A stretch of DNA of 64,000 nucleotides from a virus. Location of the stretch: IMG/VR virus record IMGVR_UViG_3300042384_001374, positions 12,100 through 76,099 of that record. The stretch is one strand, 5' to 3'. The notes under the pieces were generated by a model. It saw only the letters and a list, made by a program, of their open reading frames with translations. It did no database searches and was not told the origin of the DNA. Numbering within the stretch: the first letter of the stretch is position 1; each line of letters opens with the position of its first letter. Position numbers and translations under genes: made by a program. Positions 32,656-50,600 of the stretch are shown one piece after another.

Positions 32656-33051
32656 ATGACCAACACACCTACACTCGACCAACTCGAAGCCCTTGTCCTA
32701 GAATGGGGAAAAGCCAAAGGCATTCTCGAACACGCTACGCCAGAATCCCAGTTTCGCAAAACTCTGGAAGAGGTTCAAGAAATTGCAGACGGACTTGAAT
32801 TTGGAATTGATGAAGAAATTCTGGATGGTATCGGAGACACGGGGGTAACTCTAATCTTGCTTGCCGCCCTTAAAGGCTGGACGTTCCGTCAGTGTCTTGC
32901 GCACGCCTACGGCATTATTTCCAAACGCACCGGACGAATGGTTGATGGAATGTTCGTGAAAGATGTTCCGTCAAGCGATGATGACCTTGGTGAACTAGAC
33001 GCGTCCAAAGCTTGTCGTGTGGGTGATGAACCCTGCGAAAGCTGCCAATAA
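32656..33051 (+). CDS. MazG-like NTP pyrophosphohydrolase
   Basis: WG..KGI...Q..KTLEEV.E...DGIGD..VTL...CL..AY..I..RTG.M.DG.FVKD. Confidence 0.85.
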   Translation: MTNTPTLDQLEALVLEWGKAKGILEHATPESQFRKTLEEVQEIADGLEFGIDEEILDGIGDTGVTLILLAALKGWTFRQCLAHAYGIISKRTGRMVDGMFVKDVPSSDDDLGELDASKACRVGDEPCESCQ

Positions 33052-33283
33052 TTTTAGCCACGGCTAAACAAATCCCGTCCGTAAACAATCGGACAAATGA
33101 CCGAAGCGTGATTGCAAGCGCGTGACGGCAAGAAGCCTATATGGTAAGTGGCTCCCCATCTGCTCGGCGTGGTAACAACTGACCGGGCGCATTCTCCAGC
33201 CAACCCAACTCATAAGCGAACATTACATCGGCCGCGCCGCCGAAGCTGCCGCCCGAGCCCGTCACAACCGAATCCACAAACCA

Positions 33284-33904
33284 ATGAAAAAGACCGCCAA
33301 GAAAAAGACCGCCGCCAAGAAAGTTCCAAGCAAGCAGGCCCGCGCCTTCTCGCAAGCCTTGGAGACATTCAAGAAGCCTGAGTCCCCAATCGAACTTCAG
33401 CACGCGGAACACCTGCTTGTTCGTAAAATTGGTCAGGTGATAAAAGAACCGGCTGACAGCTTTGTGGATTTGCCTAATTCCGATCCAGTTCCAGAGCATG
33501 CCGAAAATTGGGAATCCGTGCCCAACTACGGCCCTTCCACCGAAGTGGACGAAGAAGCGATGGCTCGCGAGGTGTTGTTTGGCGAGATGCCAGTTTCTGA
33601 TGCTCATGCAGCAGCCGTAGAAGCGTCGCCGCCTAACCTTGGCCACATAGTGCCACAAACCACACCCGACGCGCCACAAACGCCCCTACACGACGAAAAG
33701 CTCGGACAAAACCTTAAACCATCCGAAACCACCGACGATCAACTCGACCCAGAGCAACTCGCCAACAACATTGAGCTGCTGATCGACTCGCTCAACTTCA
33801 TCCACGACCGGGGATGGCTGCGCAAAATGCAGGAAAAAGACATCCAAATCGTCAAAGCCCGCATTAAGTGCGGACGCAAAATTATCAGTCAACTCCGCAA
33901 CTAA
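33284..33904 (+). CDS. hypothetical protein
   Basis: Lys-rich start, low-complexity body. Confidence 0.6.
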   Translation: MKKTAKKKTAAKKVPSKQARAFSQALETFKKPESPIELQHAEHLLVRKIGQVIKEPADSFVDLPNSDPVPEHAENWESVPNYGPSTEVDEEAMAREVLFGEMPVSDAHAAAVEASPPNLGHIVPQTTPDAPQTPLHDEKLGQNLKPSETTDDQLDPEQLANNIELLIDSLNFIHDRGWLRKMQEKDIQIVKARIKCGRKIISQLRN

Positions 33905-33921
33905 TTTTAGCCACGACTAAA

Positions 33922-34134
33922 ATGGAAGAGATCAACCTTGCCGCGCCTAACCAGCAAAAAAAAAGCGGCTTTATTCTGCGTCCAACCCCGGACCCGGAAC
34001 CTCCCGTCGTCGTTCCGTGCTGCCAATACGTTCTTACCGATACCCAAGAATACTCAGTATTCTGGAATCCTTTCAACAAAGTAGTGCAATGTCACAACTG
34101 TGGACACATCTGGACCCCGGAATCCATCAAGTGA
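33922..34134 (+). CDS. small Zn-ribbon protein
   Basis: CC...WNPFNKVVQCHNCG. Confidence 0.6.
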   Translation: MEEINLAAPNQQKKSGFILRPTPDPEPPVVVPCCQYVLTDTQEYSVFWNPFNKVVQCHNCGHIWTPESIK

Positions 34135-34445
34135 GCAAAAAACCCAAAACCAAAAAAATCGGAGTCAAGGAACTGCTTGCGCTTTTAGGTGCTGATCCAA
34201 ACGAAGCTATCCCAACCGGACTGCGCGAAGCGGAATGGGCCACGCAATTAGAAGGCTGTGAACATGAGCCCGTCGGGCTTGGGAAATGCTCAACAACCAG
34301 CAAGGTAATGTTCTTGTCATTCTCTCAAGCCAAAGCCGCCAGCAAGCGCCGTCTCAAGCGCGGATCAAATGCCAACGCTTTCCGGATTTATCTGTGCCCG
34401 GATTGTTCGCACTTTCACATGACCAGCCAAGTCAAACGCTCATGA
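34131..34445 (+). CDS. hypothetical protein
   Basis: K..F.....A...RIYLCPDCSHFHMTS. Confidence 0.6.
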   Translation: MSKKPKTKKIGVKELLALLGADPNEAIPTGLREAEWATQLEGCEHEPVGLGKCSTTSKVMFLSFSQAKAASKRRLKRGSNANAFRIYLCPDCSHFHMTSQVKRS

Positions 34446-34614
34446 CTGAAACCCTACCACATAAAAAAGACGACCAAGACTTCATCGACAAACACGGCCG
34501 CAACCACACTTGCGAATGCGGTTTGACCAACATTTGGAGCCCACGTTTCGACATGTGGATGTGTTCCGGTAACCTCGCCAAATACAAAGCACTCTACAAA
34601 AATTCCCTTGAAGT

Positions 34615-34836
34615 ATGAATTCCATCTGCCACTACAAAGAAAACGAACAAGGATATTGGAATTCCGATTGCGGCAAAACATTTGACTCGATCACTTGGCA
34701 CGATTATGCCCGCGATTTTATTTGGTGTCCCTATTGCGGATCTGAAATGAATTCTGAAATGCACATGTCAAAACAAGACCTTAAAGAAGATCGCGGCGAC
34801 CGGGCGCATCAAGAAAGGAAAGATGACGAAGAGTGA
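34615..34836 (+). CDS. small Zn-finger protein
   Basis: WNSDCG...WCPYCG. Confidence 0.65.
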   Translation: MNSICHYKENEQGYWNSDCGKTFDSITWHDYARDFIWCPYCGSEMNSEMHMSKQDLKEDRGDRAHQERKDDEE

Positions 34837-35042
34837 GCGCAAAAAAGAAAACAGCCCAGCACGTTTATGCGCTAAAAGTCAGCGAGATCCTAAAAAAGCT
34901 GGGAATCCCTGAGGCCAAACAAGACAAATTCGGAAATCCTTATATCAACCCGGAATATTTGACGCGCCTTCCAGTTACGGTAAAATCTGATTACCAGTCA
35001 AAAGATTGCCACCGGGTAATTTTCAAGCTTTATAAGCAATAG
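34833..35042 (+). CDS. hypothetical protein
   Basis: GTGA-coupled ORF. Confidence 0.55.
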   Translation: MSAKKKTAQHVYALKVSEILKKLGIPEAKQDKFGNPYINPEYLTRLPVTVKSDYQSKDCHRVIFKLYKQ

Positions 35043-35169
35043 AAACAACCAAAAAACCCAAAATCATGACTACCATTGACATTGTAATTTTAATTTGGTC
35101 CGCCGTCATCGGCGTAATTTTCATTTTTTGGCATGTTTTTATCAGCGGGAGAAGGGGACGATAACTTTT

Positions 35170-35577
35170 ATGGAAAATACAATACAAAGCGAAGTAACGT
35201 TGCCATGCACGCCTAGTGATGCATTTAAAATGGTGGAATTCATTCGCCGATACAATAGGTGGAGGCGCGGCGACGAATCGCTTGAGATGGAATCACCGAA
35301 AGCCATTGGAGATGCCCTTGATGCTGTTTGCAGCTTTATAGAAACTCTAGAACGCGAGCAAGACGAATGGGTCGCCAAAGCGGTAGAGCTATGCGCCGAG
35401 CGGGAATCCAATGCCATGCAGGCGTTGGCGTATAAAGCCGAGCGGGACGAGGCGCGTGCAATGGCGCGTGACATGCGGAACCAGCTCGAAAAGGCATCAA
35501 CGGCCCGACTGCTCTTTCCTTCCGAGAACGCTGGGGGCCATGCGCCCGGAGTAAAAGATCAAGCCAATGAAAAGTAA
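35170..35577 (+). CDS. hypothetical protein reading into the first attC-like site
   Basis: YNRWRRGD...PKAIGDALD plus coiled coil (ERDEAR). Confidence 0.7.
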   Translation: MENTIQSEVTLPCTPSDAFKMVEFIRRYNRWRRGDESLEMESPKAIGDALDAVCSFIETLEREQDEWVAKAVELCAERESNAMQALAYKAERDEARAMARDMRNQLEKASTARLLFPSENAGGHAPGVKDQANEK

Positions 35578-35618
35578 CAGAAAAGCTTCTCCGGGTCGTA
35601 TGCGCTCCCTTGTTCGTC
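35523..35618 (-). repeat. attC-like site 1
   Basis: CGAGAAC..catgcg cccggag/ctccggg T cgtatg C gctccctt GTTCGTC. Confidence 0.8.
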
Positions 35619-35902
35619 CGTGGCAGGAACTCGCGACCCATGCTGACAAAACAATCACGCCGACCGTGGGTGAGACGCTGGAATACCTCTGGGATGGCTA
35701 CCGTGGAGAGGGGCAATGGAGGTCATGCACGATCACACGGATTGATGAGGGGCAATCATGGACGCGACTCCATGCCCGAATGTATTGGGGTTTCGATCAC
35801 GCGGATCGCCACCCACGCGAACAAATACTGCACCCACGGGCATTCCGTCGGACGAACGCTAGGGCTATGACGCCAGCAACTGAATCAGACCATGGAAAGT
35901 AA
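35567..35902 (+). CDS. cassette 1 hypothetical protein
   Basis: Starts in site 1, stops in site 2. Confidence 0.65.
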   Translation: MKSNRKASPGRMRSLVRPWQELATHADKTITPTVGETLEYLWDGYRGEGQWRSCTITRIDEGQSWTRLHARMYWGFDHADRHPREQILHPRAFRRTNARAMTPATESDHGK

Positions 35903-35944
35903 CAGAAAAGCTATTGAGGGTCGGGCATCAGCCCCTTGTTCTCG
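35851..35944 (-). repeat. attC-like site 2
   Basis: GACGAAC...T cgggcat C agcccctt GTTCTCG. Confidence 0.7.
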
Positions 35945-36251
35945 GTCTTTTGATGACCTACTGGAGAGCTTGGACGCATGGATCGAGGACGCGCTAAAAG
36001 GCTCGAAGCCTATCGGACTAACGCTATCCCGCGCCCGCACCACCATCACCGATCAAAGGGATAGGATCGGGGAAATCTTCGATGCGTTGGAATGCCAGAA
36101 TAAGGAAGTGGAAAAGCTCCGCGCCGCCATCCGAAACCTCCGCGATGTAAAGGGACGCCATCATACGCAAATCGCCACGGAACAACTCTTCGCCCTTCTT
36201 CCCGAGAACGATGAGCCCATGCGCGGCGAAAATGGAACGAATATGAAATGA
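35892..36251 (+). CDS. cassette 2 hypothetical coiled-coil protein
   Basis: Starts in site 2, stops in site 3. Confidence 0.65.
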   Translation: MESNRKAIEGRASAPCSRSFDDLLESLDAWIEDALKGSKPIGLTLSRARTTITDQRDRIGEIFDALECQNKEVEKLRAAIRNLRDVKGRHHTQIATEQLFALLPENDEPMRGENGTNMK

Positions 36252-36294
36252 AATTGAGGAGCTTCTGGCCGTCGAATGCGGCGGCTTGTTCTCT
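36203..36294 (-). repeat. attC-like site 3
   Basis: CGAGAAC...gccg T cgaatg C ggcggctt GTTCTCT. Confidence 0.75.
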
Positions 36295-36328
36295 GAATCA
36301 GCCCGAATAACACGAACGACGACGATCA

Positions 36329-36538
36329 ATGAAAGACGAAGATATAGCCGATGCCGAAGCGCAAGGATTTGCTTCCCTCAAGTGGGACGCCGCCGAAAAT
36401 CGAGATATCAAAACCGCCCTTGAAATGCAAAAGGCGGAAACGGAATCACTTTGCCGTCTGGCGAAGATGATTGAACAACCCGACCCGGAAGATCCAACGA
36501 AAGCCGCCGACTGGTGGAAACCTGAAACCGACCAATGA
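36329..36538 (+). CDS. cassette 3 gene a, hypothetical
   Basis: ORF, ATGA-coupled to next. Confidence 0.6.
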   Translation: MKDEDIADAEAQGFASLKWDAAENRDIKTALEMQKAETESLCRLAKMIEQPDPEDPTKAADWWKPETDQ

Positions 36539-36948
36539 AAAACAACCGCACGCAAAAAGAAGTGATCCAAGAACGCCAACGAAATGCCGGGTCCAATATC
36601 GCGGCGTATCTGCCAAAACCTCCTGGATCGTATGGAAACCCTTACGAACGGCAACAGACCGCAAACAAGCCGCAGCATCTACGTCCTGATTCGGAAGGCT
36701 GGTGGTGGAGGCTTTGTAAGGGCGAGTGGGAATGCGGCAAGGCTGAATACATCCAGTGGGAAGACGCTGGAGAACCCGAACAAGAGCGAGTATTAGCGTG
36801 GTCCCGTGGAGGATGTTACACGCGATGCGACCAAATCAACCTTCGCTTGGACTCTGGGACACGCTGGTTCAAAGCAACTCCGCCCATCTTGGATTCAGAG
36901 AACACAACCAGCCCATCTACGGGCGCAACTGAAAAAGATCATGAGTGA
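36535..36948 (+). CDS. cassette 3 gene b, hypothetical
   Basis: PDSEGWWWR motif; stops in site 4. Confidence 0.6.
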   Translation: MKNNRTQKEVIQERQRNAGSNIAAYLPKPPGSYGNPYERQQTANKPQHLRPDSEGWWWRLCKGEWECGKAEYIQWEDAGEPEQERVLAWSRGGCYTRCDQINLRLDSGTRWFKATPPILDSENTTSPSTGATEKDHE

Positions 36949-36993
36949 GAAAATGGAAAGCGATAGCCCGTTAGATGCGGCGACTTGTTCGGC
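36897..36993 (-). repeat. attC-like site 4
   Basis: AGAGAAC..catcta cgggc/gcccg T tagatg C ggcgactt GTTCGGC. Confidence 0.8.
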
Positions 36994-37306
36994 TCTTCTT
37001 GATGCCTCGCTCGACCTGCTCGCCGGATGGTGCGATGCCGTGAAAAACGGCGGCACTGGGTGGGATGATTGGGACGGATGGTATAAAGACGCCTGCTATC
37101 GCCCCGGCCCGCTGCGCGAACTGATCGATGCTCGCATAGCGAAGATCGCCGCCGATGAATCTGAATGTCCGAGATGCCATGCAACGCGCACATATTACGA
37201 CGGGTGGAACTGTCCGACTGAAGGATGTGATTCTTTGCCGAACGCATCAGCGATGGCACCGCCGCCCCAGCGGCTGCCATCCACGAAGGACGTTCCCGGC
37301 GGTTGA
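36941..37306 (+). CDS. cassette 4 hypothetical protein with Zn finger
   Basis: GTGWDDWD.WYKDA; CPRC..C....C. Confidence 0.65.
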   Translation: MSEKMESDSPLDAATCSALLDASLDLLAGWCDAVKNGGTGWDDWDGWYKDACYRPGPLRELIDARIAKIAADESECPRCHATRTYYDGWNCPTEGCDSLPNASAMAPPPQRLPSTKDVPGG

Positions 37307-37326
37307 CCATCCGCGTCTTGTTCTGG
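37237..37326 (-). repeat. attC-like site 5
   Basis: GCCGAAC..gatgg ca ccgccg/cggcgg T tg A ccatc..ctt GTTCTGG. Confidence 0.8.
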
Positions 37327-37349
37327 GTCTTTTTGGGGGCGCGAAAAAA

Positions 37350-37401
37350 TATGAGAATCTCATAAAATAAATGTTGACCTTGTGCGAGAATCTCGTAATG
37401 T
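37350..37401 (+). promoter_or_regulatory. sigma70-like promoter with two inverted-repeat operators
   Basis: TTGACC(37374)-16 bp-TAATGT(37396); TATGAGAATCTCATA at 37350 and CGAGAATCTCG at 37385. Confidence 0.7.
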
Positions 37402-37447
37402 CTCCCCAGTTGCACGACGCAACGCCAACACCAAACCAAACACGAAA

Positions 37448-37720
37448 ATGAAAATCACCATCAGCCACGACCAAGACAGCATCGACCCATCCGCCACCTA
37501 CTCCGACGAGCAATTCGTGGAAGTCCGCAAGGCTCTCGAAGCCGAATACGAAAAGGCCATCCTCGCCGAATACCCCGAAGCCGAAATCGACTTCAGCGGC
37601 ACTGACACCACCTACGCGATCCGCGTAACCGGAACCGAAATGGATGACCCGAGCGAGATTGAGGAGAACGTGCAAAGCATCTGCGAAAGCGTCTTCGAAA
37701 CCGGAAACTTCTGGATCTAA
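37448..37720 (+). CDS. cassette 5 small highly acidic protein (anti-defence candidate)
   Basis: 90 aa, very D/E-rich, followed by an HTH gene. Confidence 0.7.
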   Translation: MKITISHDQDSIDPSATYSDEQFVEVRKALEAEYEKAILAEYPEAEIDFSGTDTTYAIRVTGTEMDDPSEIEENVQSICESVFETGNFWI

Positions 37721-37905
37721 TGTTCGCCGATCAACTCAAAGATGAGCGCAAACGCCTCGGCCTGACACAGGCCGGGGCGGATGCCGTCCTCGATACCTGT
37801 CGGGGACAGGTAGCCGCATGGGAAAGCGGACGCAACACGCCGCACGTCCTCACTCAGGAGGGAGCCTTGGCACGCCTCCGCAACCGGAAGACTCCGCGCA
37901 AATGA
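37720..37905 (+). CDS. XRE/Cro-type HTH regulator (Aca-like)
   Basis: LKDERKRLGLTQ..A...L......VAAWESGRNTP. Confidence 0.85.
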   Translation: MFADQLKDERKRLGLTQAGADAVLDTCRGQVAAWESGRNTPHVLTQEGALARLRNRKTPRK

Positions 37906-37912
37906 TTCTTCC

Positions 37913-38035
37913 CCAGAACGCAATAGGTGAGGCACGGGCGGACAACGCCAGCCCGCCACAAGATCAAAATCTCTAATCACATGGAAACTCCGAATCAAAC
38001 CGACCCGCCCGTTGACCTCGACCGCCTTGTTCGTC
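37913..38035 (-). repeat. attC-like site 6
   Basis: CCAGAAC..gagg ca cgggcgg/ccgcccg T tg A cctc G accgcctt GTTCGTC. Confidence 0.8.
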
Positions 38036-38280
38036 CTTCTTGGTTCAAGGGGGACGCGGCTTGCGACTGGCATGAAGATGCTGGCCACGAGAACGGCAGC
38101 TACTACTGCAAGTGCCTCGACTGCGATGCTGACTTCGTGGGGCATAAACGCCGCCACATCTGCCGCAAATGCCACTACGAAGCCAAGGCCAGATATGACG
38201 CTCTGACCCCCGAAAAACGGGCGGCATTTGATGAAAAACGAAACGCCGAAATCAGGGCATTCTTTGAGACGAACGCCTAG
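37981..38280 (+). CDS. cassette 6 Zn-finger protein
   Basis: DW.ED..HENG.Y.CKCLDC...F.GHKRR..CRKC. Confidence 0.7.
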   Translation: METPNQTDPPVDLDRLVRPSWFKGDAACDWHEDAGHENGSYYCKCLDCDADFVGHKRRHICRKCHYEAKARYDALTPEKRAAFDEKRNAEIRAFFETNA

Positions 38281-38356
38281 CTCATGCACCCGCCCATGAA
38301 AGACTCCGAATCAAACAAAGACGCTCCGGCGGGTTGCATGAAGCGACTTGTTCGTC
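38268..38356 (-). repeat. attC-like site 7
   Basis: GACGAAC..gct catgca cccgcc/ggcggg T tgcatg A agcgactt GTTCGTC. Confidence 0.8.
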
Positions 38357-38541
38357 CTCTTTATTCGATGCAGCGATGCAGGAAGGATAATTCCAGATAC
38401 GGGAAAATCCACTTCGCGCATCATGAATTCGAAACGCTTTGTGGGCTGACTACGGATTCCGACTGGTGGGTTCTCACAAACAGGCATGACGGCGATGCGA
38501 CATGCGCAAAATGTATTAAGACGAACAGCAGTTGTTCGTAG
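38296..38541 (+). CDS. cassette 7 Zn-finger protein
   Basis: H......TLCG...TCAKC. Confidence 0.65.
   Translation: MKDSESNKDAPAGCMKRLVRPLYSMQRCRKDNSRYGKIHFAHHEFETLCGLTTDSDWWVLTNRHDGDATCAKCIKTNSSCS
38520..38540 (-). other. attI-like simple recombination site at array end
   Basis: ACGAAC-agcagtt-GTTCGT, inverted cores with a 7-bp spacer and no long stem. Confidence 0.45.
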
Positions 38542-38600
38542 TGCCCGACCGCACGAATAATCAGCGAAGCAAATAATGAAATTTTAGTTGAGGCTAAAAC

Positions 38601-41600
38601 CTATTTGTTTTCTTTGCGAATCACCTCGCGCATTTCGGCGCGCTTTTCCGCTCTCGGCTCTCTGGCAAACGGAATAGCTTCAAATGTCAAATAGGTGGCC
38701 GCGTCCAGCAACGAAGCCGCCCGGTTGCGTTGCGCTTCCCTGCTCATCAAATATTGCGAAGTAAGGACGCCCGCTTCCAGCGCGTCGTGAGCCATAGCGG
38801 TAGGTGCGGTCAAGTCAGCCAGTGAACCGTGCCACGAGTCTTTGTAAGAGCGAATGGTAACACCGTTCTTGTCGTAGCTTCCAAAGCCTGCTTTAAGCTG
38901 TTTGCGATTAAACGTGTTGTTTAATCCAGCGGCTCCGGCAATTGCCATCGGGTTAGTGACGGTTTTCTGCACCAACCCGGAGACCGGTGCGTAACCCGCC
39001 ATTACCCCCAGCACTGGCACTGCTGTGGTTAGTTCCAGCAAGCTTCTGGAAGCAATTTCAGCAAATGCCGACGCCTGCGCCGCGTCTGCTTTTTTGGTCT
39101 GGTCAAACAATTCCCGTTTGTTGCCAAACGTGATGGTTTTAATGACTTCGCCGAGCATAGAGCTTTTTTTGTCCACGAACATCCACTCGTTGGCGAGTTT
39201 CTGAGCTTTTTTCTGGGCCTTGTCATCATCGTCGCCGCCTGCCAAAAAAAACAAATAAGACACCATTGGCACCAGCATTTGAAGCTTAAACGGGTAAAAC
39301 AAAATGTTTTGGGTCAGTGAGGTGACCACGTTCTCCAGCGCCTCTTTCTTGGTTTCCGCGTCAGCCTTTTCATCAAACAAAATGGGCACCAAAACCGAAG
39401 TGTTGGACGCCATGCTCGACGTGTGATTGCTGAAGCGCACCATCGAACGCCACAGCGCGTTGCGGCCGGGCGAAGATGTCCGGTTCTGAAACATCCACGA
39501 TTTCTTGCTTTGGTCCGACTGAGCCATCACATCGTTCACCTTGCGCCGGGCGTTGCTCTTTGCCATCGCGGTGGGCTCGACGTTCGATTTGACCACGTCG
39601 GCCGGTTCCATCTTCATCTGGTCAGCCAGCTCGACAATGAACATCGCCGTGGACAAGTAGGACTCACCCTTGCCAATAGTCCAATGAAGCGCCTTCTCGC
39701 CGAGCTTTTCGTATTCCCGAAGCCCTTTGCCAGCAAGGTTCTTGGCCGTGCTTTTCCCAAACCTGACTTGGCTGTGCATGATGTCACGCGCCACATCCGC
39801 GCCGTCCGCCGAGCGGTAATACACCGAACGGTCGGTCTTGCGGACAAACTCCCGAGCCTGTTCATTGAATTTTCGGTCGGTGATCAGCTTTTGCAGGATG
39901 CTGAAGTATTGCGCTGCTTGCTTGCCCTTTCCAACCGCAATCTTGCCAGCGGCATACCCTACTGAAGGGCCTGTCGTCTGGTTCCAAACTTGTTGAAGGC
40001 TCGCCAAAGCCCGGACTATGTACAACGATCCGAGAAAGCGCATTGCTTCCGCGCCACCCGTGTTGCTCACTCCGTTGGCAGCGTCGTTTTGGAGGATCGT
40101 CTCGTTTTCTTCCGCGATGGCGGAAAGAGCTTGGCGAAACTTTTTAATCTCGTCCTCAGCTTCCTGCTTGGCTTTGCGCTGGGCCGGATCGTTCCAGTCG
40201 ATGTCGTCAGGAATCATCTCGTTCGCTTTATTGAGAAAGTCACCGTCTTTGATGGTGTTCACGCCGTGCTCATCCTGCACCACGCGGCCGAGTGAACGCC
40301 GCAGCACCTCGTAAGTCGGAGTGACGTTCAGCTTATAGATAGCGTCGTCCAAAAGCGAAAGCGGCGCGGTAAGTCCGTTCAATGAAATCGGACGGAACGG
40401 ATTGCGGGAGTTGAAGTAGCCACCCTTGCCGTAGCCGCCGAAGAACGACGAGTCCTTCAACGACACCATGTCGATGGGGTCGGCGATGAAGCGGTCGGAA
40501 CTGACCTGCTGCTCTGCCGGGTCGGGGCGTGCCGCGTAACCAACACGCAGCGGCACGGACGAATAGGTAATCTTGAATGCCTCCTTAGCGTCGTCCCGCC
40601 ACGACTCGCCCGTCACCATGCGCTCGCCCTTCAGCAACTCGCCCGGCTGCTTGTCCACCGCCGCATCCTGCGACAACATCGCCATGGTAAGCTGCATCGC
40701 GCTACTGATGTCGGCAAACGACCTGTTGAGCTGCTGGGCATATCCTTCGACCGCAGCCTCGTTACCCAGAGTGACTTTCGATTCAAGCAGTGCAATGAAT
40801 TTGTCCGTCAGCTCTTTCGCTATTTCCGGCGAGCTAATGATGGTATTCGAAATGCCGGATTCCAGCATCCATCCGCGAACTTCCCGAGCCAGTTCCAAAT
40901 CACGGATCATGTCGAGATTATCCGCGTTCCAGTAGCGGTTCAGTTTTGGAATTACTTTGCCGGTCGGAATAGGATTTTTGTTCGCATCCAAAACAGCCTT
41001 GCCATCCGGGCCTTTTACCAGCTCGCCAAAATACAATCCTTGCGCCCGATTCAGGTTTTCCAACTCGTTCAGTCCACGCCCGATGTCGGTAACCAAGCGG
41101 TTGGTCGCCGTCTCGCGGTGCATTCCGAATGCTGTGTCGATGCCTCGGAACACCGAAATGAGGTAGCCGATGGTTTGGTCTTTGGCGTTATTACCAATCG
41201 GCTTGGCCGCCTTGACGATCTTTTCCTCCTCCGCTTTTTTGGAAGTCTCATAGCCTTGGCGTCCGCTGGTGCCGTCGATGCCATATTCGATGAAGTCTTG
41301 CAAATGGATAGCGGCTTGGCGGGCAGCGAAGTTGCGGCGGAACTTGCTACGAATGCGAGCGTCTTGGTGATGCAAGAATTTCAAGGCTCCCAATTCCAGA
41401 GCATGCTTCTTGCCGTCAAACGATACAAAATCAGTAATCAGGCACTTCTGGATTTCTATTGCTTCAATTTCGGCGAACGCCAGCGAAAACACCGGCTCCA
41501 CCCGGAAAGCAAGCATCCGGCTGACATCCATGTCCTTGACTGAAGATCCGCCCACTTTGGCGAACTCGCCCGAATCAATCGACTTCAACAAGGTTTTGAT

Positions 41601-44600
41601 CTTAGCCTTGGTGCTGTCGCTAAGCCGGGTGTCGCCGTGCGCGATGACCAACCGTTCGATCATGTAACCAAATTGGTCGAGCTGCTTCTTAGACACGTCG
41701 CCAGTCAGGTCGGCGGTGCGTTTTGCACCAGTAACCGAACTCATCGCGTCGTCCAGCCATGTCTGCATGCCTTTCCGCCAGTCGTCCGAAAATGCCTTAG
41801 CGGCTTCACCTTTTTTCAGGTTTTGTTTAGCCGGACTAAAATCAGCGCCGTCAAAATCCTTGCCAACTTCTTTTTCAGTTCCGGCAAGGAAGTAAGAATA
41901 AGACCCTTGCGCTGGCACACCTTGATTGACTGGCAGTGCATCAAGGATAATGCGCTCCATCTCACGGTTGACGTTGCGCTTGGTAATCTTTGGAAAGTGC
42001 TGCATCAACAACTCGCGGGCGTTGAGCGGCATCATGATCACCTTCTCGCCCTCTTGGTTGATGAGAACACCCAGCTTTTCCTTCCGGAGCTGGTGACTCT
42101 TTGGCAGGTTGATTTGTTTGACGCGGTTTTGGGCGGTGCGGGTCAGGGTGAGTGCCTCTTCCGGGTCGGACAGGTAGGCTGCGGCGTCGGCCGTCATGCC
42201 CTTGTATTGCGCTTCCTGCGCGTCGGAGTGGGCGTCCTGCATCACCTCTTTGACAATTTGCTCCTCAAGCTGCACCAAGTCCACCGCTTGGTTGATGGCT
42301 TTGAGTGGGTCAAAGTTCATGAATTGGTCGCGAGAGCCCCGAACAAACTTGTAGGCGTCCTCAATGCGGTTTTCAGACTGCTCAGTAAGAGCTGTAATGA
42401 CGGCTTTCTGTCGTATCCAGTAGTCTCTGCGGGACATAGTGCCAGACGGCTCGCTTGAAGCGCTTGCAGGTGCCTGAACGTCGTCAGAAACAGGCGGCAA
42501 GGGGTTTGTCAGTGTCAGCTGTGCTTTGTATGTCACTTTTTCGTCGATTGCCTTGGTCAATAAACCTCCAGACTGATCGTTTTTTTGACCCTGCGACGCC
42601 CGCCCCGAATAATAACCCATCCCCACTGGCACTTTGCCTTTGTTGCTGTCGATGACGGACAGTTCGTTGCGAGTCTGCTCCAGTTCGCGCTCCACCCGTC
42701 CGAGGTAAATGGCAGCTTCCTTACGGCCCTGTTCCTGCTCCACGCTGCGGGCCTTACTGGAAAGCAGCGCCCGTGCTTGGTTGGTAGTCAAAGCGATGTC
42801 TTGAAGGGCTCTTTGAAGATCCACTCCAATCAAAACCTGTTGTTTTTGAGTGGATAAATTCTCAAAATTGCGAGCAGCACGAAAGATTTCATCAATTGAT
42901 TGTTCAGGATCAGAAACAAAACCTTCGTTACTATCCAGCAACTTGTTAATTTCCTCGTCGATAAACGCGGGCAAGTCAATGGTTTCGTTCTTCATCAACT
43001 CCTCTGACACCATCCGCATGAACGCGTTGGTCTGCATCTTTGGTTTAGCCCCGGCCGTCACCCCTTGGGTAATCTCACGGACCATGTTGTCCATAAACCC
43101 TTGGGCAAACTTGCGGCCGTTGAGCATTCCAGACAGCGAGTTCATTACGTCGGTTTGTTCCTGACGCGTGAAATCGTCGGTTTCCTTGAATGTTTTTAAA
43201 CGGAACCCGCTCAGATTCGCTTTTTTCGGGTCCACCCCGGTCCAGCGCATCACTTGACGGGCGTGCATCTCGGCGTGCGAGTTGAAGATGGAAACGTGCA
43301 GGTTGAACAAACGGGCAGCGTCGCTGATGCGGCTGTTGATGCCTTGCGTGTCGCCCTGTGGCAGCTCGTTGTTCTCGTCCGGAGTGAGCAGGGTGTTGCG
43401 TTCGCGGACCAGCGCGCCGATGGCGTTGGCTTGTTTGTAAAGCCCGTCCACCGCCGCTTTGAGCTGCGGGTTGTTTTCCATGCCCTCGGTGAGCATCAAA
43501 TGCACGACATGCCCAAGATTCGCCGCATTACCGGAATCATCTTTCATCATTTCCGCAAAACGGGTGACGTGCGCCACCACCATGTCCCGAGTCTCCGCTT
43601 TCAGAGATTCGGACCAGTCTTTAGCCGTGGCTAAAAGGTTTGCACCTTCCGGGCTGTTGTCCAACAACTCCTGAAACGCCTGACCATTATCCGCTTCGTA
43701 AGCGCCGATCTCCGCCAGCAGCGCCTCGCGCAGCTCGTTCAGGCGAGTTTGGTTCTTTTCCAGCGTGTCGAGCGACAGCTTGGCTTCCAGCTCCGCTGCA
43801 TCCAGCACGCCAGCAGGCAGCGCCATCCGAATCGACTCCATCATCGCGTCGTCCAACGGCAAATTTACATCCACAAGCCCAAACCCGGACGCATCGGCAT
43901 CCTTTGAAAACTTAGAAATGGCCTTTTTCACAACCGCAGCACCCACCAGCGTCCGCACCGCAGGCGCACGCAGCAACAATGAACTGTTGGTCGAGTCGAT
44001 GTTTCTTTTTTGAAACGCGATGTTCTGTGACGTGCGACCGCTCACCTTTGGGATAGTCAGGTTGCGCATCTCACCGACATACATTTTGGTTGCCGCTTTC
44101 AGTCCTTTTTCAACGTTGCCTTGCAATGCTGGTCCCGCTACCGCAATGCGGAGCTTGTCAGTGCTGATGCCTTGGCCGGTCGGGTCAAGCGGGGCGCTCA
44201 GGATGTCGCTGGTCGTGCGTTCGTTGGAAGGAGCCATCGGGAATACCCCGCCAGCCGCTTTGCCCTGCTCTATGATGCGGGCAAGCCCGTTGAACAGGAA
44301 CGCGTCGGACGGATTGAGCCCGTTGCCTTGAAGCTCCTTGGCCAAGCGCTTGTTGATGCGCGGCGCGTCAGGACCAAAGCGGTTGGCTTTGCGGTCGTCG
44401 TCAAATTTTGTAGACTGGCGTCGGCCTTCCATTATTTCCTGAAGTTCTTCAAATGTCTTCGCTTCTTTGAGTGCTTCAATCTCCGGAGCGTCCGGGGTGC
44501 TATCATACCAGTTATAATTGTCGGATTCCTCCTCGTCCAACGTGACCGATTCTTCGGTGGCGCGGTCCACATGATCTTGATCGTGCTCTTGAGCGCCTGT

Positions 44601-47600
44601 GTTGGCCCGCAGGATGTTGCGGATGCCTTCCTGAAGCGCCAGCTCTACCGGCTCGGCCAGCAAAGTGTCGGCAAAGCCGTCCACTCCGATGTAAACCTTG
44701 TCGAACAACTCTTTGGCTTTCGGGTTAGTCAGCACTTCGGCGACAATCAGAATGTCAGACGCCGTCGATTGGTCGTCGCCAAACATGTTGATGAGAGCCC
44801 CGCCGTCACCATCCAAGCGCAGCGTGCGTCCAAGCTCAGCCACGTCAGACAAGTGTCCAGACGGGTCCGCCGCAATCGACTCGGGGAAGACGGCCGGGTC
44901 AAGCGACAGCCGGATGATCCGCGCCATCTCCGCAACCTGCCCGCGCACCGCTTCGTTCTTCGACGCGATCTTGAGCGACTGGGCGATGCCGCCGAAGCTC
45001 TCGGTGGCGTTTTTGTCCGGATTCTTCTGGCTACTTGGCGAATACACCACGTTTGGTCCGCCATCCGTTCCGGGGAAAATTTTGAAGCCAACATCATCCA
45101 ACCCGTAGCGAGTCACTTGGCTGTCCTTCGGCGACACGACCAACGTCTCGCCCGGAAACGTCTGGATGAGCTGTGACAAAATCGGGTTGCCGATGCCGTC
45201 GATGCCGTGGACCAGCATCGAGGCGTCATACACCATCACCTCGTCGTTGCTGGTCATGCTGCCCTTCAACATCCGGGCAATGGCATCAGACTCTTCTGGC
45301 GAAGCCATTGAATTGGTCTGCAAAGAACTTTTTGCCACTTTGCGATATTTTTTAACATCGCGTTTGACGGGTTTTTTCGGTGTTCCCTGCTTGACCTGCT
45401 CCAAGTAATGTTTTGAGTCAAAACGCTCACCCGCGCCATTTTCCAATGACCAGAATTTACTTCCCGATCCTTCAACGTAAGAAAGAATGGTATTGGATGA
45501 CTTTCCTTGCCATCCCTCACCACGATACGCCCATTGATAACCATTTTTGGCATTCGGAATTTTAGGCAGTCGGGAAAATAACAATTCCTCATCAACCGTT
45601 TCATTCACAATGAACTCTTCATCCGTTTCCACGTTTCCGCCAGAATACTTGGGAGGGTTTACACCCGGATTGTTAATGGTTCCGTTCGTATCCACGATTT
45701 CCTCAACCCGGCCAGCAGCCAGTTTAACCACAGCAAGCGCTCGGCCGATCTTGTGGCCCGCCTTAGCTTCTTCAACGATGGTCGCCTCAAACGACTGCTT
45801 AAGTTCCAACAAGCTCACTAGCACCGTCTCAACCGATGGGGTTTGCCCAGTCAAGTTGGATAGCTCTTTTTCCATTTCATCGTAGAACGCTTCCGGATTG
45901 CTCATGCTTTTGGCCAGCGGGAATGTGCCCCGGATGCCCTTGCGGACGAGCTGGCGTTGTTCGTCGCGGCTTTTGTGGTCGTTCTCCATTGCCCACAGGT
46001 CAAACAGGAAGGCACGTCCAGCGTCGATGTCGAGCGTGTCGCCGTTGCTCTGCGAACCAATCATCAAAGCGGCTCCGGTAAGCGCCATGCGGCGTTGGTT
46101 TTCGGGTCCAGCAGCTTGGTCGATGGCCACTTCGGCAGCCGTCTTCACGCGGTCACCGTCCAACGACTCCATCATGGATTGAACCGTTTCCGAACGATTA
46201 GTGCGCTTGTCGTCATCAAACACATTCGGGTCAGTAATGTTGCCCGTTTTGTTGTAGATCATCGGCATAACGCCTTCGCCCCGATTGGAACGGTTGATCA
46301 TCTCCAGAAGCTCAAAGGCGAAGTTGGAACCAAACACGTAGTCGCGCTGTTTTTCGTGGAACTTCATCAGCCACGAGAGGTTCGACAGGATGCGAGCGTC
46401 AATCGGAGCATCGCGCAGGCGCTCAAGCTCCGCATTGTCTCCCGTGTAGGAAGCTTCCCGCTGCCAGCGTGATCCCTCGAACGCCACGTTGTCACGCCAT
46501 TGCTGGTCGCGAAATTCTATCAGTGCCTTGTTGGTGAGGCGGGCCGCGTCGTTCGCACCATCCAAACGGGCACGCACGTTTACGATCATCCCGTCGAACA
46601 ACTCGGCTGCCACCACTCCGTGGTCTTTTGTAAGAACCATCTGCAAGTCGTCCAGCAAGCGGATCAGGCCGTTGGTTTCCGTCTCCCCGCCGATCTGACG
46701 CAGGAATGCCTTGTTGTTGAACTGACTTTCAATGAGCCCCTTCACCCGGCCCGCCAGTGTCTGTTTGCCGCCAAGCTCGGTGATAAGCGGCGCGAAGCCA
46801 TCGGCAATATCCTCCTTCGGCTGGCTGACCAATGCGACAGTTTCCTTGGCCCATGCTTCCATTTGGGAGACGTGCGCGATAAGCGCTTTGCGGGCTGGCT
46901 GGTTCTTGTCACCCTTGCCCTTGGCGAGCTTCTGCGCTTCGTTGGACGCTTTGAACACAAGGTCGTTGAACATCTTTACGTCCGCCGTGCGGAACGCGTT
47001 GGCGGCGCGATAGCGGTCAGCCCCGATCTCCGAATTAGTGTCCTTGGGCAAGGCAAAGCCCCCGGTGTGCCAGTAGGTGTCCGCTTCCTTGGTGTCACCA
47101 ATCTTGCCGTCCACCCAGTCCACGAAGAATTGGAGCCACTGCATGCGCCCGGCATAGGCGGCGTTGCTGTTGCCAGCAATTTCAATAACGGCACGCTCTT
47201 GGTTGTCCATCACCTGATCCGGAGTCAACGGGTCCATCCCCTTGCCTTCTTCATACCAATGCAGCTTTGGACGGAATCCGAGATAGCGGCCGGTGTCTTC
47301 AAAGCGCACGCCAAACGTATCGTTCTTGTTGCTAGACGGCGCGATGCTCGGTGCGGACAAGTTGTCCAATGCGGACGGGCTTGAGATGCTAGTCGGGAAG
47401 CTCAGGCCCTCACCGCGCCCTGTGCGAGCTTCGCGGTTCAGGTCGCGCATGCCCAAGCCAAATTCTTTCGGCCGCGTCCACACGTCCCCAAACGCAAGAC
47501 GCTGAAGGTTCTGGATCGAGCCGTTGTAAGTGTCCAGCGCTTCCTTAAACTGCATAAATTTTGACATCCGTTGAGACGACAAAGGAACTTCCGGGACATC

Positions 47601-50600
47601 CCATTGAACCGAAAAAGATTTGGCTTCAGCCTCCGAAGCGCTGCGACGTGCATCCGCAAGTTCAGTTTCGAGAATTTGTAATTGGTCGGCAACTTTAACC
47701 ATAGGCAACATCACATCATCAGATGTTGAAATAAGCGGCTCTGCCGTTCGTCCCATGTATGATGAATGCTGCTCCAAGTTGACAGAGCGTTCCAAAACCC
47801 GAGCTTTCAAACGCTTCATGATGGTCGTCACGTCATTCGGGTTGATGCCTTCACGGTCAAATGGATTCTCCAATCGAAACCTTTTAGCCGTGGCTAAAAT
47901 CGAACGACGCCCAATGTTCGTGCGCGGGTCCATCGCATTGATCAAAGTTTGATCGCGTCCAGCTTGCTTCAAGCGAAGCATCGCCATCTTTCCTTCAATC
48001 GCCCGGACACGTTGTTTGTGCATGACGGAAAGCTGGCGGTAATCTTCAGCCTGCTGTTCTTTCGGCACCGTGTTGTCGATGTGCTGACGGATGCGGGACA
48101 GCGTCTTGCCCGCATCAGGACCACCCAGCTCCAATGCCGGTGTGATGTCAAAGTCCATTGCCGCCATCCGTGCCTCCATTACCTGACGGTTGAGAAACAC
48201 CAAAGTCTTGGCCCGCTCAAAACCAGTTTGATCAGCTGACAAATCCGATTTTTCGTCGTTGATGTCGGCCAACAGCGCGTCAATGCGCTGCATCGCGGCG
48301 GACGTTCCCGAGTCGTCCAAAGCAAAATCGGCGACGTACTTCTCAAGGTAGTCTTTGATGATCGGTTTCAGGCTCATCGCCAGCGTCTCGCCGTCGATGT
48401 CGAACACGCTCTCGAACTTGGTGTTGGGGAACTGGTCCACGATTTGGCGCAACTCCGTCACCGCTTGGAAGTGCTCGGCGGTGATTTTGTTGCCCCACTT
48501 CAAGTGGGCCTCGGTGCCTTCGCGCTGCATCTCCAGCGTGCGCTCCAAAGCATCTTCCCGAGCGAAGTTCACGTCCCCTTGCACGCCAGCCTGACGGTAT
48601 GCTTGATCCAAGCGGAACAACATCTGTTGCTGGCTTTGCGGGAGCTGACCGATGGTCCAGCGCATCGCGAGGATGTTCTTAATCCGGTCGGAGTAGCGTT
48701 TCACCAACGCGGCCACCGTGTTAACCAGCTTGCCGATCTTGCCAGTCTCGTCCGCGTCCATGTTGATGGACCCTTGCAGCCACTGGCTTTCGTTGCGCAC
48801 CGCACGTTCAGTGTAAGAGCCGCTATGACGAAGCTGGTGCAGTTTGCGGATCAGTTCCGCCGCTACCGCGTAGTCTGCGCCCTTGACGAATTTCAGACCC
48901 TTAGCCTTGTCTTTTTCCTTCGGGTCCACTGAACGGCCGGGGTAGCGTTCCGCAGCCGTCTCAACCAGCAGTTTGTAAAATGGATGTTCCGGATTCTTGG
49001 CGATGTCCTTGTAGAGCTGTTCCAGTTCGGCGTCCTCAAAAACGTCCTTGGTGAGCAGGTGGAGCGTTTCTTCGTCCACCCAGTAAGCCAAGACCCGCGC
49101 CACATCGGCGGCAAGGATGTTTTTGGCCAAATCAGACGACATGTTCACCCCGGCGTATTGTTGGCGAAGTTGCTCCTTCAACTTACTGAAGTCCACCTCG
49201 ATGCGGTTGGTCTGCAAATTGGCCCTTAAGAAAGAAGCTCCTTCTTTAGACAAATCCAGCTCTGCCACTTTGTTTTTAAAGTTGGGCGATACCACATCCA
49301 TCACGCCGCTCAATGCCGAACGAACTTGTGAGACAGTAACGCTTCCATTGGCGATACCGGGAAGCAGCGGCTTGATCAGTTTCGCCGCTTCCGTAAGCCG
49401 GGTCTTGTTCCACTGGATGTTGCGCACCCCTTGGTTAAGCGTGCGCAGCGAAAGTCCTTCCGGCGACAGGCTGACTTTGCGGAACGTCCACTTGCCGTTC
49501 TTCGCAGAGTCGAGCACGAGAATGGAATCGGGCTCACCTTGGATCAGGACAGTCTGCCCCACTTTCACCGAGAGCGTCTGGCCCTTTGGGGCCTTGTAGG
49601 TGTAAACGATCTTCTCCCCCATGCCGTCCTGCACCGCGTTCTCCTTGGCGCGTTCCTGCTCGCTCTGCTCCTGCATGTTGACCCGCTCCCACTTGCCGCC
49701 AGCCTCGTCGGTCTGGCTCTGCTCGATGGTGTCGGACGCGACGATCAGAGCGCCCTCCGGGTCTACTGCGTCAATCGCGGAGCCCTCAAATTTTTCATCA
49801 GACACTTTGAGCGCATCCAGTTTGGCAATGGATGAATTGTTCTTCCTTTTCCTTCTTGGAAGACGCCGTTTGCCTTGACTTCTGTTTTGCGCTAACTGGC
49901 CATTCATTCCAAACGACCTGTATCCAAGCACCCGAGTTTTTGGAAACGCAGCGACATTTACCGAATCTTCGGAATTACCACTAAGCAAAATGACGTGGGT
50001 TGATGTTTCGCCAAGAACAAAGCCCGTATGTCCGCCCCAACCATTTTTCCCGCCAGTGGCCGGATTGTTGTTCCAAAGGACCGCAACGTCACCGTAAGAT
50101 GGAGATGTGGTTTTTTCACCCATATTCAAAAACGCTCTGGCTGAGAAGTTTTTAACGGACGACCCACCCTGTCTCAGTGACCATGATGTGAATGCGGTGC
50201 ACCATGGGAAAGTGGAAGGGCTCTGAGAAACGCCCAAGCTGACCAGCATCGACTTAATTCGAGATGAACTTTTCTCTTTTTCGTTAAGCAATGCGGCCCC
50301 GGCATTCACCGAAGGATCACTTCCCTGACGCAACCACCACTTGCTGATTTTTCCGGGCAAGACAATCGCGTCATCCGGCCCGAATTCATTGCTTGATGCG
50401 ATAAAGTTCTCGGTGGATTCAAGACTTGGCCCCACATTAGTCGTCTTTGTCTCCACCTCAACCAATGGCGCGGGAATATCAATGCTGACGATGGACGGAA
50501 AAGGAAGCGTCGACTCGTCAAGAATCGCTACGTTGTCTTTCGCCACCAACGGCAATTCATTGGAACTTGAATCAAACTCGGCATCTTCAAATTCATCCTT

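Follow-up and report, generated by a model that had tools for sequence, protein, structure and literature searches.

Integrons are known as devices with which bacteria capture genes, and to our knowledge clusters of their attC recombination sites on phages have been reported only as rare passengers. Here we describe seven hairpin sites, a short end site and the small genes between them in a virus whose record, IMGVR_UViG_3300042384_001374 of IMG/VR, occurs in lake-water metagenome runs. The record is a complete virus genome of 76,099 bp with direct terminal repeats, and the stretch that was analysed, called the window throughout, comprises 64,000 nucleotides of it (bases 12100-76099); positions below are those of the window unless stated otherwise. 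The sites occupy the final 3 kb of a long plus-strand gene block that ends at 38541. We consider it very likely that positions 35526-38537 are an integron-type cassette array without an integrase of its own, that is, a cluster of attC sites lacking an integrase (CALIN), in a lineage of integron-like systems of lake-water phages.

As a kind, phage attC clusters without an integrase are already known. Qi et al. (2023, PMC9892861) reported 17 of them in phages and found that IntI1 recombined five of the six sites under test with attI1. Those phage CALINs resemble the present locus in having co-oriented attC-type sites that bound small gene units in a phage genome without an integrase, and short inverted GTT motifs were reported there at the array boundaries. 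They differ from it in that TJE1 and PH101 keep the classical gene orientation, with at least two predicted sites per CALIN, whereas here there are seven sites plus an end site, the genes are inverted, and stop and start codons lie in the sites. Turnover located at the cores, sharing among unrelated phages and a linked IntI-like family are further differences; the sites of Qi et al. were tested with IntI1, and ours are known from sequence. A full-text literature search did not find reversed orientation, use of the sites as stops and starts, sharing among unrelated phages, turnover between near-identical phages or a linked family of IntI-like phage enzymes.

Classical attC sites undergo exchange between A and C of their sole conserved triplet, and three features of theirs are unpaired: a central spacer, a terminal structure that varies, and extrahelical bases, which are G16 and T23 in attC-aadA7 and G16, A20 and T24 in attC-oxa2 (PMC5027507). 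Like the sites of classical and sedentary integrons (Vibrio; VchIntIA, 2A3V), those described here have an AAC/GTT hairpin on the bottom strand, a central spacer that is unpaired, extrahelical bases at positions 16 and 23 or 24, a variable loop and staggered R boxes. As in a Vibrio control array, the array in integrase-bearing relatives of our locus lies upstream of the integrase gene, with its bottom strand on the integrase strand. Unlike in classical integrons, the cassette genes of those relatives run towards the integrase gene, on its strand, and not away from it.

Two further systems offer partial likenesses. The early-promoter stem-loop (PeSL) elements of T4-type phages (PMC2839356, PMC4122927) also are conserved stem-loops flanking small uncharacterised genes in plastic regions, and their shuffling is thought to proceed via circles; they carry promoter and terminator motifs, however, and act through homologous recombination, whereas our sites show neither signature but have attC geometry, staggered flanks and a link to an IntI-like gene. 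Synthetic attC sites placed in coding sequence (Nivina et al. 2020, PMC7439510) show that structure-dependent sites can be written into coding DNA. Those sites were engineered and tested in vivo, while the sites at this locus are natural, known from sequence, and overlap the ends of two genes.

The seven sites, S1-S7, lie on the plus strand between 35526 and 38353, run from AAC to GTT over 83-117 nt, and each extend from GAAC to TTGTTC. They are listed below with two scores. The descriptor encodes the published attC spacing (PMC5027507), with unpaired bases at 16 and at 23 or 24 from the 3' end, 5-nt spacers and 15 pairs; the covariance model was built from 12 sites of equal layout, with the structure supplied by hand.

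35526-35615, plus strand: S1, attC-like in bottom-strand sense, left end of the variable array; descriptor 15 of 15 pairs, model 66.2 bits.
35854-35941, plus strand: S2, attC-like, with the weakest of the seven stems; not found by the rigid descriptor, model 37.8 bits (E 1.7e-6).
36206-36291, plus strand: S3, attC-like; descriptor 13 of 15, model 43.9 bits.
36900-36990, plus strand: S4, attC-like; descriptor 14 of 15, model 35 bits (filters off).
37240-37323, plus strand: S5, attC-like, with three unpaired bases; descriptor 15 of 15, model 52.7 bits.
37916-38032, plus strand: S6, attC-like, a hairpin of multi-copy type; descriptor 15 of 15.
38271-38353, plus strand: S7, attC-like; descriptor 15 of 15, model 58.2 bits.
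38523-38537, plus strand: S8, a mini site of 15 nt (GAAC, 7 nt, GTTC), right end of the array; fold z -4.0.
36664-36681, plus strand: relic half site like a 5' arm, inside gene g3b, with complementarity to the 3' arm of S3 and to that of S4 (repeat search).

A sequence-only reading of the window had proposed an integron-like cassette array with seven hairpins at this locus, and all seven are present; the starts it gave lie 3 nt before each GAAC. With the cores paired, the sites share one layout. A 5-bp closing box is followed by an internal loop with a spacer of 5-7 nt on the 5' side and of 5 nt on the 3' side (most commonly GCCTT), then by 3 bp and an unpaired base in the 3' arm; inward of this base come a stem of 6-7 nt, an unpaired T, another 6-7 bp and a variable loop of 30-60 nt. 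By hand pairing, all seven sites have the outer unpaired base, 8 nt before GTT, reading C, C, C, C, C, G and A in S1-S7, and it is mostly C whereas the published attC-aadA7 and attC-oxa2 carry G16. The inner unpaired T, 6-7 nt further in, is also present in all seven, and both bases are thus where the first description of the hairpins had put them. Forced pairing of the cores turns S1, S3, S4, S6 and S7 into single long imperfect hairpins, and the bulged layout is kept by every plus-strand site, in S2 and S5, whose free minimum-energy folds differ from the hairpin, through pairing by hand or by the descriptor. Among the tabulated descriptor hits, relatives included, sites inside arrays measure 76-128 nt. 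The half site at 36664-36681 resembles the leftover 5' arm of a lost site, which suggests that cassette 3 may be two fused units.

The AAC and GTT closing triplets are found in seven of seven window sites. In the base adjoining them the sites vary: before AAC stands G in 28 of 36 sites, T in five, C in two and A in one, and after GTT stands C in 25, A in six and G in five. A departure from the canonical RYYYAAC/GTTRRRY had been pointed out at the outset, and most sites do lack that consensus. A minority of relatives are canonical, with GGCTAAC/GTTAGCC present in L016 and L053. GAAC/GTTC is merely the commonest core, and relatives also use the canonical TAAC/GTTA.

The flanks of the sites obey a staggered rule. 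A script confirmed that, at all seven junctions, the flank after GTTC is the reverse complement of the flank before the next GAAC, over runs of 3-8 nt, as the sequence-only reading had claimed. The same holds beyond the window: in 16 records with 41 pairs of consecutive sites, complementarity extends on average over 4.1 nt when a site is matched to the next one and over 0.83 nt when it is matched to its own flank, and 31 of the 41 pairs have a run of at least 4 nt. Because the point of exchange is within the R box, the bases that follow one GTT and those that precede the next AAC belong to one cassette. They would pair solely in the circular form of that cassette.

Comparison with real attC sites agrees with this geometry and fixes the strand. 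The positive control was the start of a Vibrio anguillarum chromosomal integron carried on phage MK672802. The descriptor found six of the seven window sites on the plus strand at 13-15 of 15 pairs, four of them perfect; it also found ten real attC sites in the Vibrio control, on the strand opposite to the cassette genes, four sites in a relative, and about 1.5 hits in shuffled genomes. Since the window sites match on the plus strand and the control sites match opposite their genes, the plus strand is the equivalent of the bottom strand and has the cassette genes on it. Core-closed hairpins of -10 kcal/mol or below on the plus strand of the whole 76-kb genome all fall inside the array, and shuffles give about three per genome, counting both strands. 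The covariance model identified 69 sites (59 distinct) in 29 sources, on one strand within each record. An unfiltered run of the model over 33000-40000 recovered all seven window sites (E <= 1.5e-7) with no other significant hit; a run over the whole window with the default filters gave six, S4 having been lost to the filters, and no other hit at E <= 1.

The hairpin stems are under selection for structure. In the 59 distinct sites, 94.2% of cells are paired versus 64.7% in shuffles, and each of the 15 stem pairs varies on both of its sides. The covariation score, from an alignment that was fitted to the model and hence favours the structure, is 0.678 versus 0.161 in shuffles (none of 500 reach it) and 0.03-0.11 when the partners are slid. 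The same range of pair types is seen in 36 descriptor hits that were tabulated independently. The triplet pairs are retained in 59, 58 and 59 of the 59 distinct sites, so that AAC/GTT is near-invariant. RNAalifold predicted no pairs on a MAFFT alignment of 24 sites, because differences in spacer length throw the 5' arms out of register; comparison with Rfam gave chance-level matches only and no matching family, and a crude whole-site fold scan was uninformative.

The open reading frames (ORFs) of the array tile the plus strand, which is the strand of the sites' bottom-strand sense, and are inverted relative to classical cassettes. They are as follows.

35170-35577, plus strand: g0, last backbone gene, with its final 16 codons and stop inside S1 (ORF list).
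35567-35902, plus strand: g1, cassette 1, 111 aa; begins (ATG) in the loop of S1 and stops in that of S2; no family match.
35892-36251, plus strand: g2, cassette 2, 119 aa (ORF list).
36329-36948, plus strand: cassette 3, with two genes, g3 (36329-36538) and g3b (36535-36948).
36941-37306, plus strand: g4, cassette 4, 121 aa; central domain with 260 relatives.
37374-37905, plus strand: cassette 5, with its own promoter-like TTGACC-16-TAATGT (37374-37401) and genes g5 (37448-37720) and g5b (37720-37905).
37981-38280, plus strand: g6, cassette 6, 99 aa, Cys/His-rich; 27 homologues.
38284-38541, plus strand: g7, cassette 7, 85 aa; last codons and stop from S8.

A stop codon lies inside each of the seven sites, and the ATG of the next gene inside five of them. 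The classical layout, in which the ORF is on the top strand with attC downstream, was not found in the array; in the Vibrio control, genes and bottom strands are opposite. That g6 is truly coding on the plus strand follows from its comparison with viral contig L009, in which substitutions fall 4/6/24 by codon position. Among the 27 members of the g6 family (60-94% identity), the protein is conserved from LVRP (encoded by TTGTTCGTCC) to TN (encoded by ACGAAC), and the leaders and tails outside this core are unrelated among members.

Most of the cassette proteins match nothing in PHROGs. Residues ~16-72 of g4 form a widespread small domain with 260 relatives (E <= 0.001), usually C-terminal in proteins of 65-250 aa, and no Pfam family scores above its cut-off for this central domain. 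Cassette 5 is self-contained (37340-37905) and is the only one with its own promoter-like element, which is flanked by two GAGAATCTC-type inverted repeats; its proteins are a very acidic one of 90 aa, g5, and then a helix-turn-helix (HTH) protein of 61 aa, g5b, joined by TAATG. Matches of the cassette 5 products to HTH_31/HTH_3, and weak DinI-like matches, all fall below the Pfam cut-offs.

The same backbone in other lakes holds different array content, with the joints at the first and last AAC cores, where the sequence-only reading would have had cassettes gained, lost or reordered. Logan contigs of four other lake-water runs were mapped on 33800-39600; stretches of the array without contig cover in X2-X6 were not used as evidence. 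On the left side, contigs of 12-13 kb in X4 and X6 match 33800-35531 (10 differences, ~99.4% identity) and then continue into ~400 nt of unlike sequence, and a 12.7-kb backbone contig of X3 ends at 35486. On the right side, a contig of 641 nt, unlike the window over its first 603 nt, joins it at 38524, and contigs of 5.7-6.5 kb match the backbone from 38534 on at ~99% (10 differences in 1067 nt). The joint at 35531 is the GAACGC of S1 and the joint at 38524 is the AAC of S8. Loose contig ends fall at S8, before 38524/38528, in X4 and X6; at 36210, the AAC of S3, in X2 and X4; at 37237, in the flank of S5, in X4; at 37914/37916, the AAC of S6, with the end at 37916 in X2; and in X2 also at 38033 (GTTC of S6) and 38357 (S7). 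The joints are not repeat chimeras, because the letters shared at them are far shorter than the assembler's word. We do not rely on one further joint, from 36540 to 37914 in X3, which has only 24 letters on one side.

Single units of the array also occur in phages that are otherwise unrelated. The phage behind contigs L009-L014 has another backbone (a VRR-NUC nuclease, with an SNF2 helicase downstream), and the sole stretch that these contigs share with the window is 37914-38278, which is S6 with g6, at 88% identity and running from one AAC core to the next. The exact 26-mer of S6 is found in nine viral contigs in which similarity to the window is confined to 37916-38033; one of the nine, G008, is a complete 59.7-kb phage that has eight sites and shares no backbone protein with the present one. 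The complete genome G001 is a syntenic, distant relative that has no array at this position, and its relative of g6 lies 8 kb away between two sites with the flanks GTTCTCGCG/CGCGAGAAC and GTTCTCGG/CCGAGAAC. A cassette of promoter, acidic protein and HTH protein follows g6 in L016, in the opposite order to the window and with differing sequence. Gene g3 alone recurs in the viral contig L047 at 84% nucleotide identity, and relatives of g5b (63-68% identity) lie inside the integrase-linked arrays L134, L135 and L137. Cassettes of the type of cassette 5, but of another sequence, are thus present in integrase-linked arrays as well as in L016. The site family as a whole is present in at least two dozen viral contigs.

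A slot elsewhere in the L009-type phage is variable as well. Between the VRR-NUC-like gene and the SNF2-type helicase gene (~3000-3300 in L009), the contents differ by sample among L009, L011, L012 and L013, being nothing, a small gene or one of two different genes that by eye resemble methyltransferase genes; the junctions there are at gene starts, not hairpin cores. L010 is without 1.67 kb relative to L009 (L009 positions 233-1900), with a joint of 5-nt microhomology that is unrelated to the sites and may be an illegitimate event or an assembly artefact.

An integron-integrase-like gene stands directly beside arrays of the same family in eight other viral contigs. This gene is the likely source of a recombinase that had been suggested to be encoded elsewhere. 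Further arrays were identified with a degenerate 3'-arm pattern together with the covariance model (about three quarters of the 61 pattern hits had no model site and were dropped), which gave 12 more viral contigs with arrays, four of which encode tyrosine recombinases. Terminase, portal, tape-measure and replication-initiator genes mark G021 as a real phage; a gene of 349 aa stands 210 bp away from its array of 12-13 sites, and the bottom strands and cassette ORFs of that array are on the integrase strand. The best NCBIfam match of the 349-aa protein is TIGR02249 (integron integrase), and its best solved relative is VchIntIA (2A3V), at E 1.4e-32 versus 4e-23 for an Xer-like protein. It is 30% identical to the Vibrio integrase and keeps the catalytic residues (RHRY) and, in shortened form, the IntI-specific W.WLFPS...RWH segment. 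G024 has the same arrangement. With the G021 protein as bait, each of seven viral loci, G021 itself among them, has 3-12 sites on the integrase strand immediately upstream of the gene, and most inter-site intervals in the integrase-linked loci are open on that strand. The IntI-like family comprises at least 392 members of ~320 aa with Pfam domains PF13495 and PF00589, one of which is filed at NCBI under uncultured Caudovirales phage. G021 also carries a second, different integrase-like gene (phrog_1; L127, 4615-5862, plus strand), which is presumably its lysogeny integrase, the IntI-like gene then not being its sole recombinase.

The integrase-linked arrays also offer a counterpart for the right end of ours. 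In L134, L135, L136 and L138 the last cassette ends at an xAAC^AG... junction (^ marks the joint) just before the integrase gene. The left flank of this junction is complementary to the site before it, and L134 and L135 have identical right halves; in the L134 type the junction reads AAC^AGTTAATTATAGG. By analogy, S8 (GACGAAC^AGCAG...) is probably an attI-like landing junction with no integrase gene behind it.

It is possible to view the locus as a classical CALIN captured from a bacterial host, either as a piece of a chromosomal integron or as cassettes inserted by the host's IntI, with any further exchange dependent on the host. Phage CALINs with attC sites that the bacterial IntI1 recombines are published (PMC9892861), and the lack of an integrase in this genome would agree with such an origin. 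We nevertheless think it unlikely. In contrast to the real Vibrio array, the genes here are on the bottom strand, and stops and starts are built into the sites. Moreover, every placeable relative of a cassette, a hairpin or the integrase is in a viral contig or a phage-like metagenome contig, and a scan of 185,579 species genomes for the g6 family turned up no array and nothing closer than distant zinc-ribbon matches in four metagenome-assembled genomes.

Several observations weigh against an integron-type array. Six frames of the complete 76,099-bp genome contain no tyrosine recombinase (PF00589), which extends to the whole genome what had been noted for the window, and none is found in G001 or in the nine S6-bearing records G004-G012. 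With seven sites and no integrase in the genome, the locus has what defines a CALIN, at least two attC sites with no integrase nearby; complete integrons, with an adjacent intI, are found not here but in G021, G024 and L133-L138. The enzymes themselves depart from the classical ones: TIGR02249 scores 180 bits for the G021 protein and 226 bits for that of G024, both below the curated cut-off of 265, and the IntI-specific segment of the IntI-like proteins is ~10 residues shorter than that of the Vibrio enzyme. In the sites, the base adjoining the triplet does not follow the strict RYYYAAC/GTTRRRY consensus (36 sites), being mostly G or C where classical integrons have Y and R. The Vibrio attC sites are not hit at E <= 1 by the covariance model, which had been derived from phage sites, and this may reflect lineage-specific sequence. 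One unit, g6 in L016, violates the flank rule, and the natural variants were read from contigs, not raw reads.

The placing of breakpoints at the AAC/GTT cores, which was part of the original proposal, stands for the natural variants, for the block of S6 with g6 and for the S6 hairpin but does not hold at every junction. The boundary between g3 and g3b is not at a core, nor is the left edge of the g3 block common to L047; L015 and L016 share g6 from the GTTC side only, and L009 and L011 differ at a ribosome-binding site. Part of the shuffling is probably due to homologous recombination of similar hairpins with one another and to ordinary illegitimate events. With these points taken into account, the integron-type reading is supported by geometry, covariation, flanks, natural junctions, mobility and the IntI-like gene in relatives.

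Junctions of this kind, at the GTTC side or outside cores, would be expected if the hairpins were mainly RNA or regulatory junction elements, acting in coupling, processing or stability, and if the units were shuffled by homologous recombination. The shuffling of PeSL elements through circles in T4-type phages is a precedent (PMC2839356), the bottom strand here is the coding strand so that every mRNA carries the hairpin, and stops and starts are located in the loops. Such a role would leave unexplained the staggered flank rule, the exact attC spacing of the unpaired bases, the invariant AAC/GTT triplets and the constant linkage to an IntI-like gene; in addition, S1-S7 contain no promoter-like site, and their terminator-like sites are not above those of shuffles. 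As the main function of the hairpins we regard it as very improbable, although an RNA role may well coexist with recombination. That the array is a dead relic, once built by an integrase and now immobile and merely inherited, would suit the missing integrase, the weak stem of S2 and the relic half site within g3b, but is scarcely credible when backbones ~99% identical carry different array content in other lakes and all sites but one of the seven retain 13-15 of the 15 stem pairs.

Under the integron-type reading, we infer that an IntI-like enzyme recombines these sites, acting in trans on this phage and via circular intermediates. Each site would fold from the plus strand as the bottom strand of an attC site, and the enzyme would cut at AA^C. 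Its source would most likely be a co-resident or co-infecting phage that bears an integrase, and less likely a host integron. Recombination between two sites would release a circle consisting of one hairpin followed by its gene or genes, and the circle could then re-enter at another site or at the end junction S8. The cassette genes would be read through from upstream phage promoters. Each site would double as a stop/start joint, its arms encoding leaders and tails of the small proteins.

It is tempting to go further, and here we lean only slightly towards the larger claim: that the locus belongs to a phage-specific, mirror-image integron system common to unrelated lake-water phages, lytic as well as temperate. 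Such a system would have its own IntI-like clade (at least ~390 members) and a shared pool of small accessory cassettes moving from phage to phage, would serve phages without an integrase in trans, and would have its sites written into the ends of the cassette genes, supplying stop and start; the cassettes would perhaps serve in counter-defence.

The surroundings of the array have features of their own. Directly beyond it lies a convergent ORF of 5280 aa (38601-54443, minus strand), none of whose three 1760-aa thirds matches a PHROG family. The C-terminal 499 aa of its product, used as bait, found no close relative among viral contigs, and the protein is 29% identical to that of the relative G001 over ~2420 residues. 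We did not adopt an N4-like label for the phage; the 5280-aa protein has no PHROG match. A blastn comparison of 35000-39000 with 50,697 cultured-phage records gave no match. A 16-bp palindrome, TTTAGCCNNGGCTAAA, occurs in 27 copies in the window (at most two mismatches; 324-58494) versus 0.11 expected, mostly at gene junctions and with three exact copies within the giant ORF. The sequence-only reading had taken its absence from the array as a sign of foreign origin. The absence is real, with zero copies between 33921 and 38583; as a sign of foreign origin it is weak, as gaps of 3.6-5 kb exist elsewhere.

If the proposed chemistry is true, these phages would have a dedicated, shared mechanism for swapping small accessory genes, to which much of the so far unexplained variability in the early regions of phages could be traced concretely. 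Nature would then also provide a case of recombination sites embedded in coding sequence. The cassettes themselves form a defined set that can be mined for candidate host-takeover or counter-defence genes.

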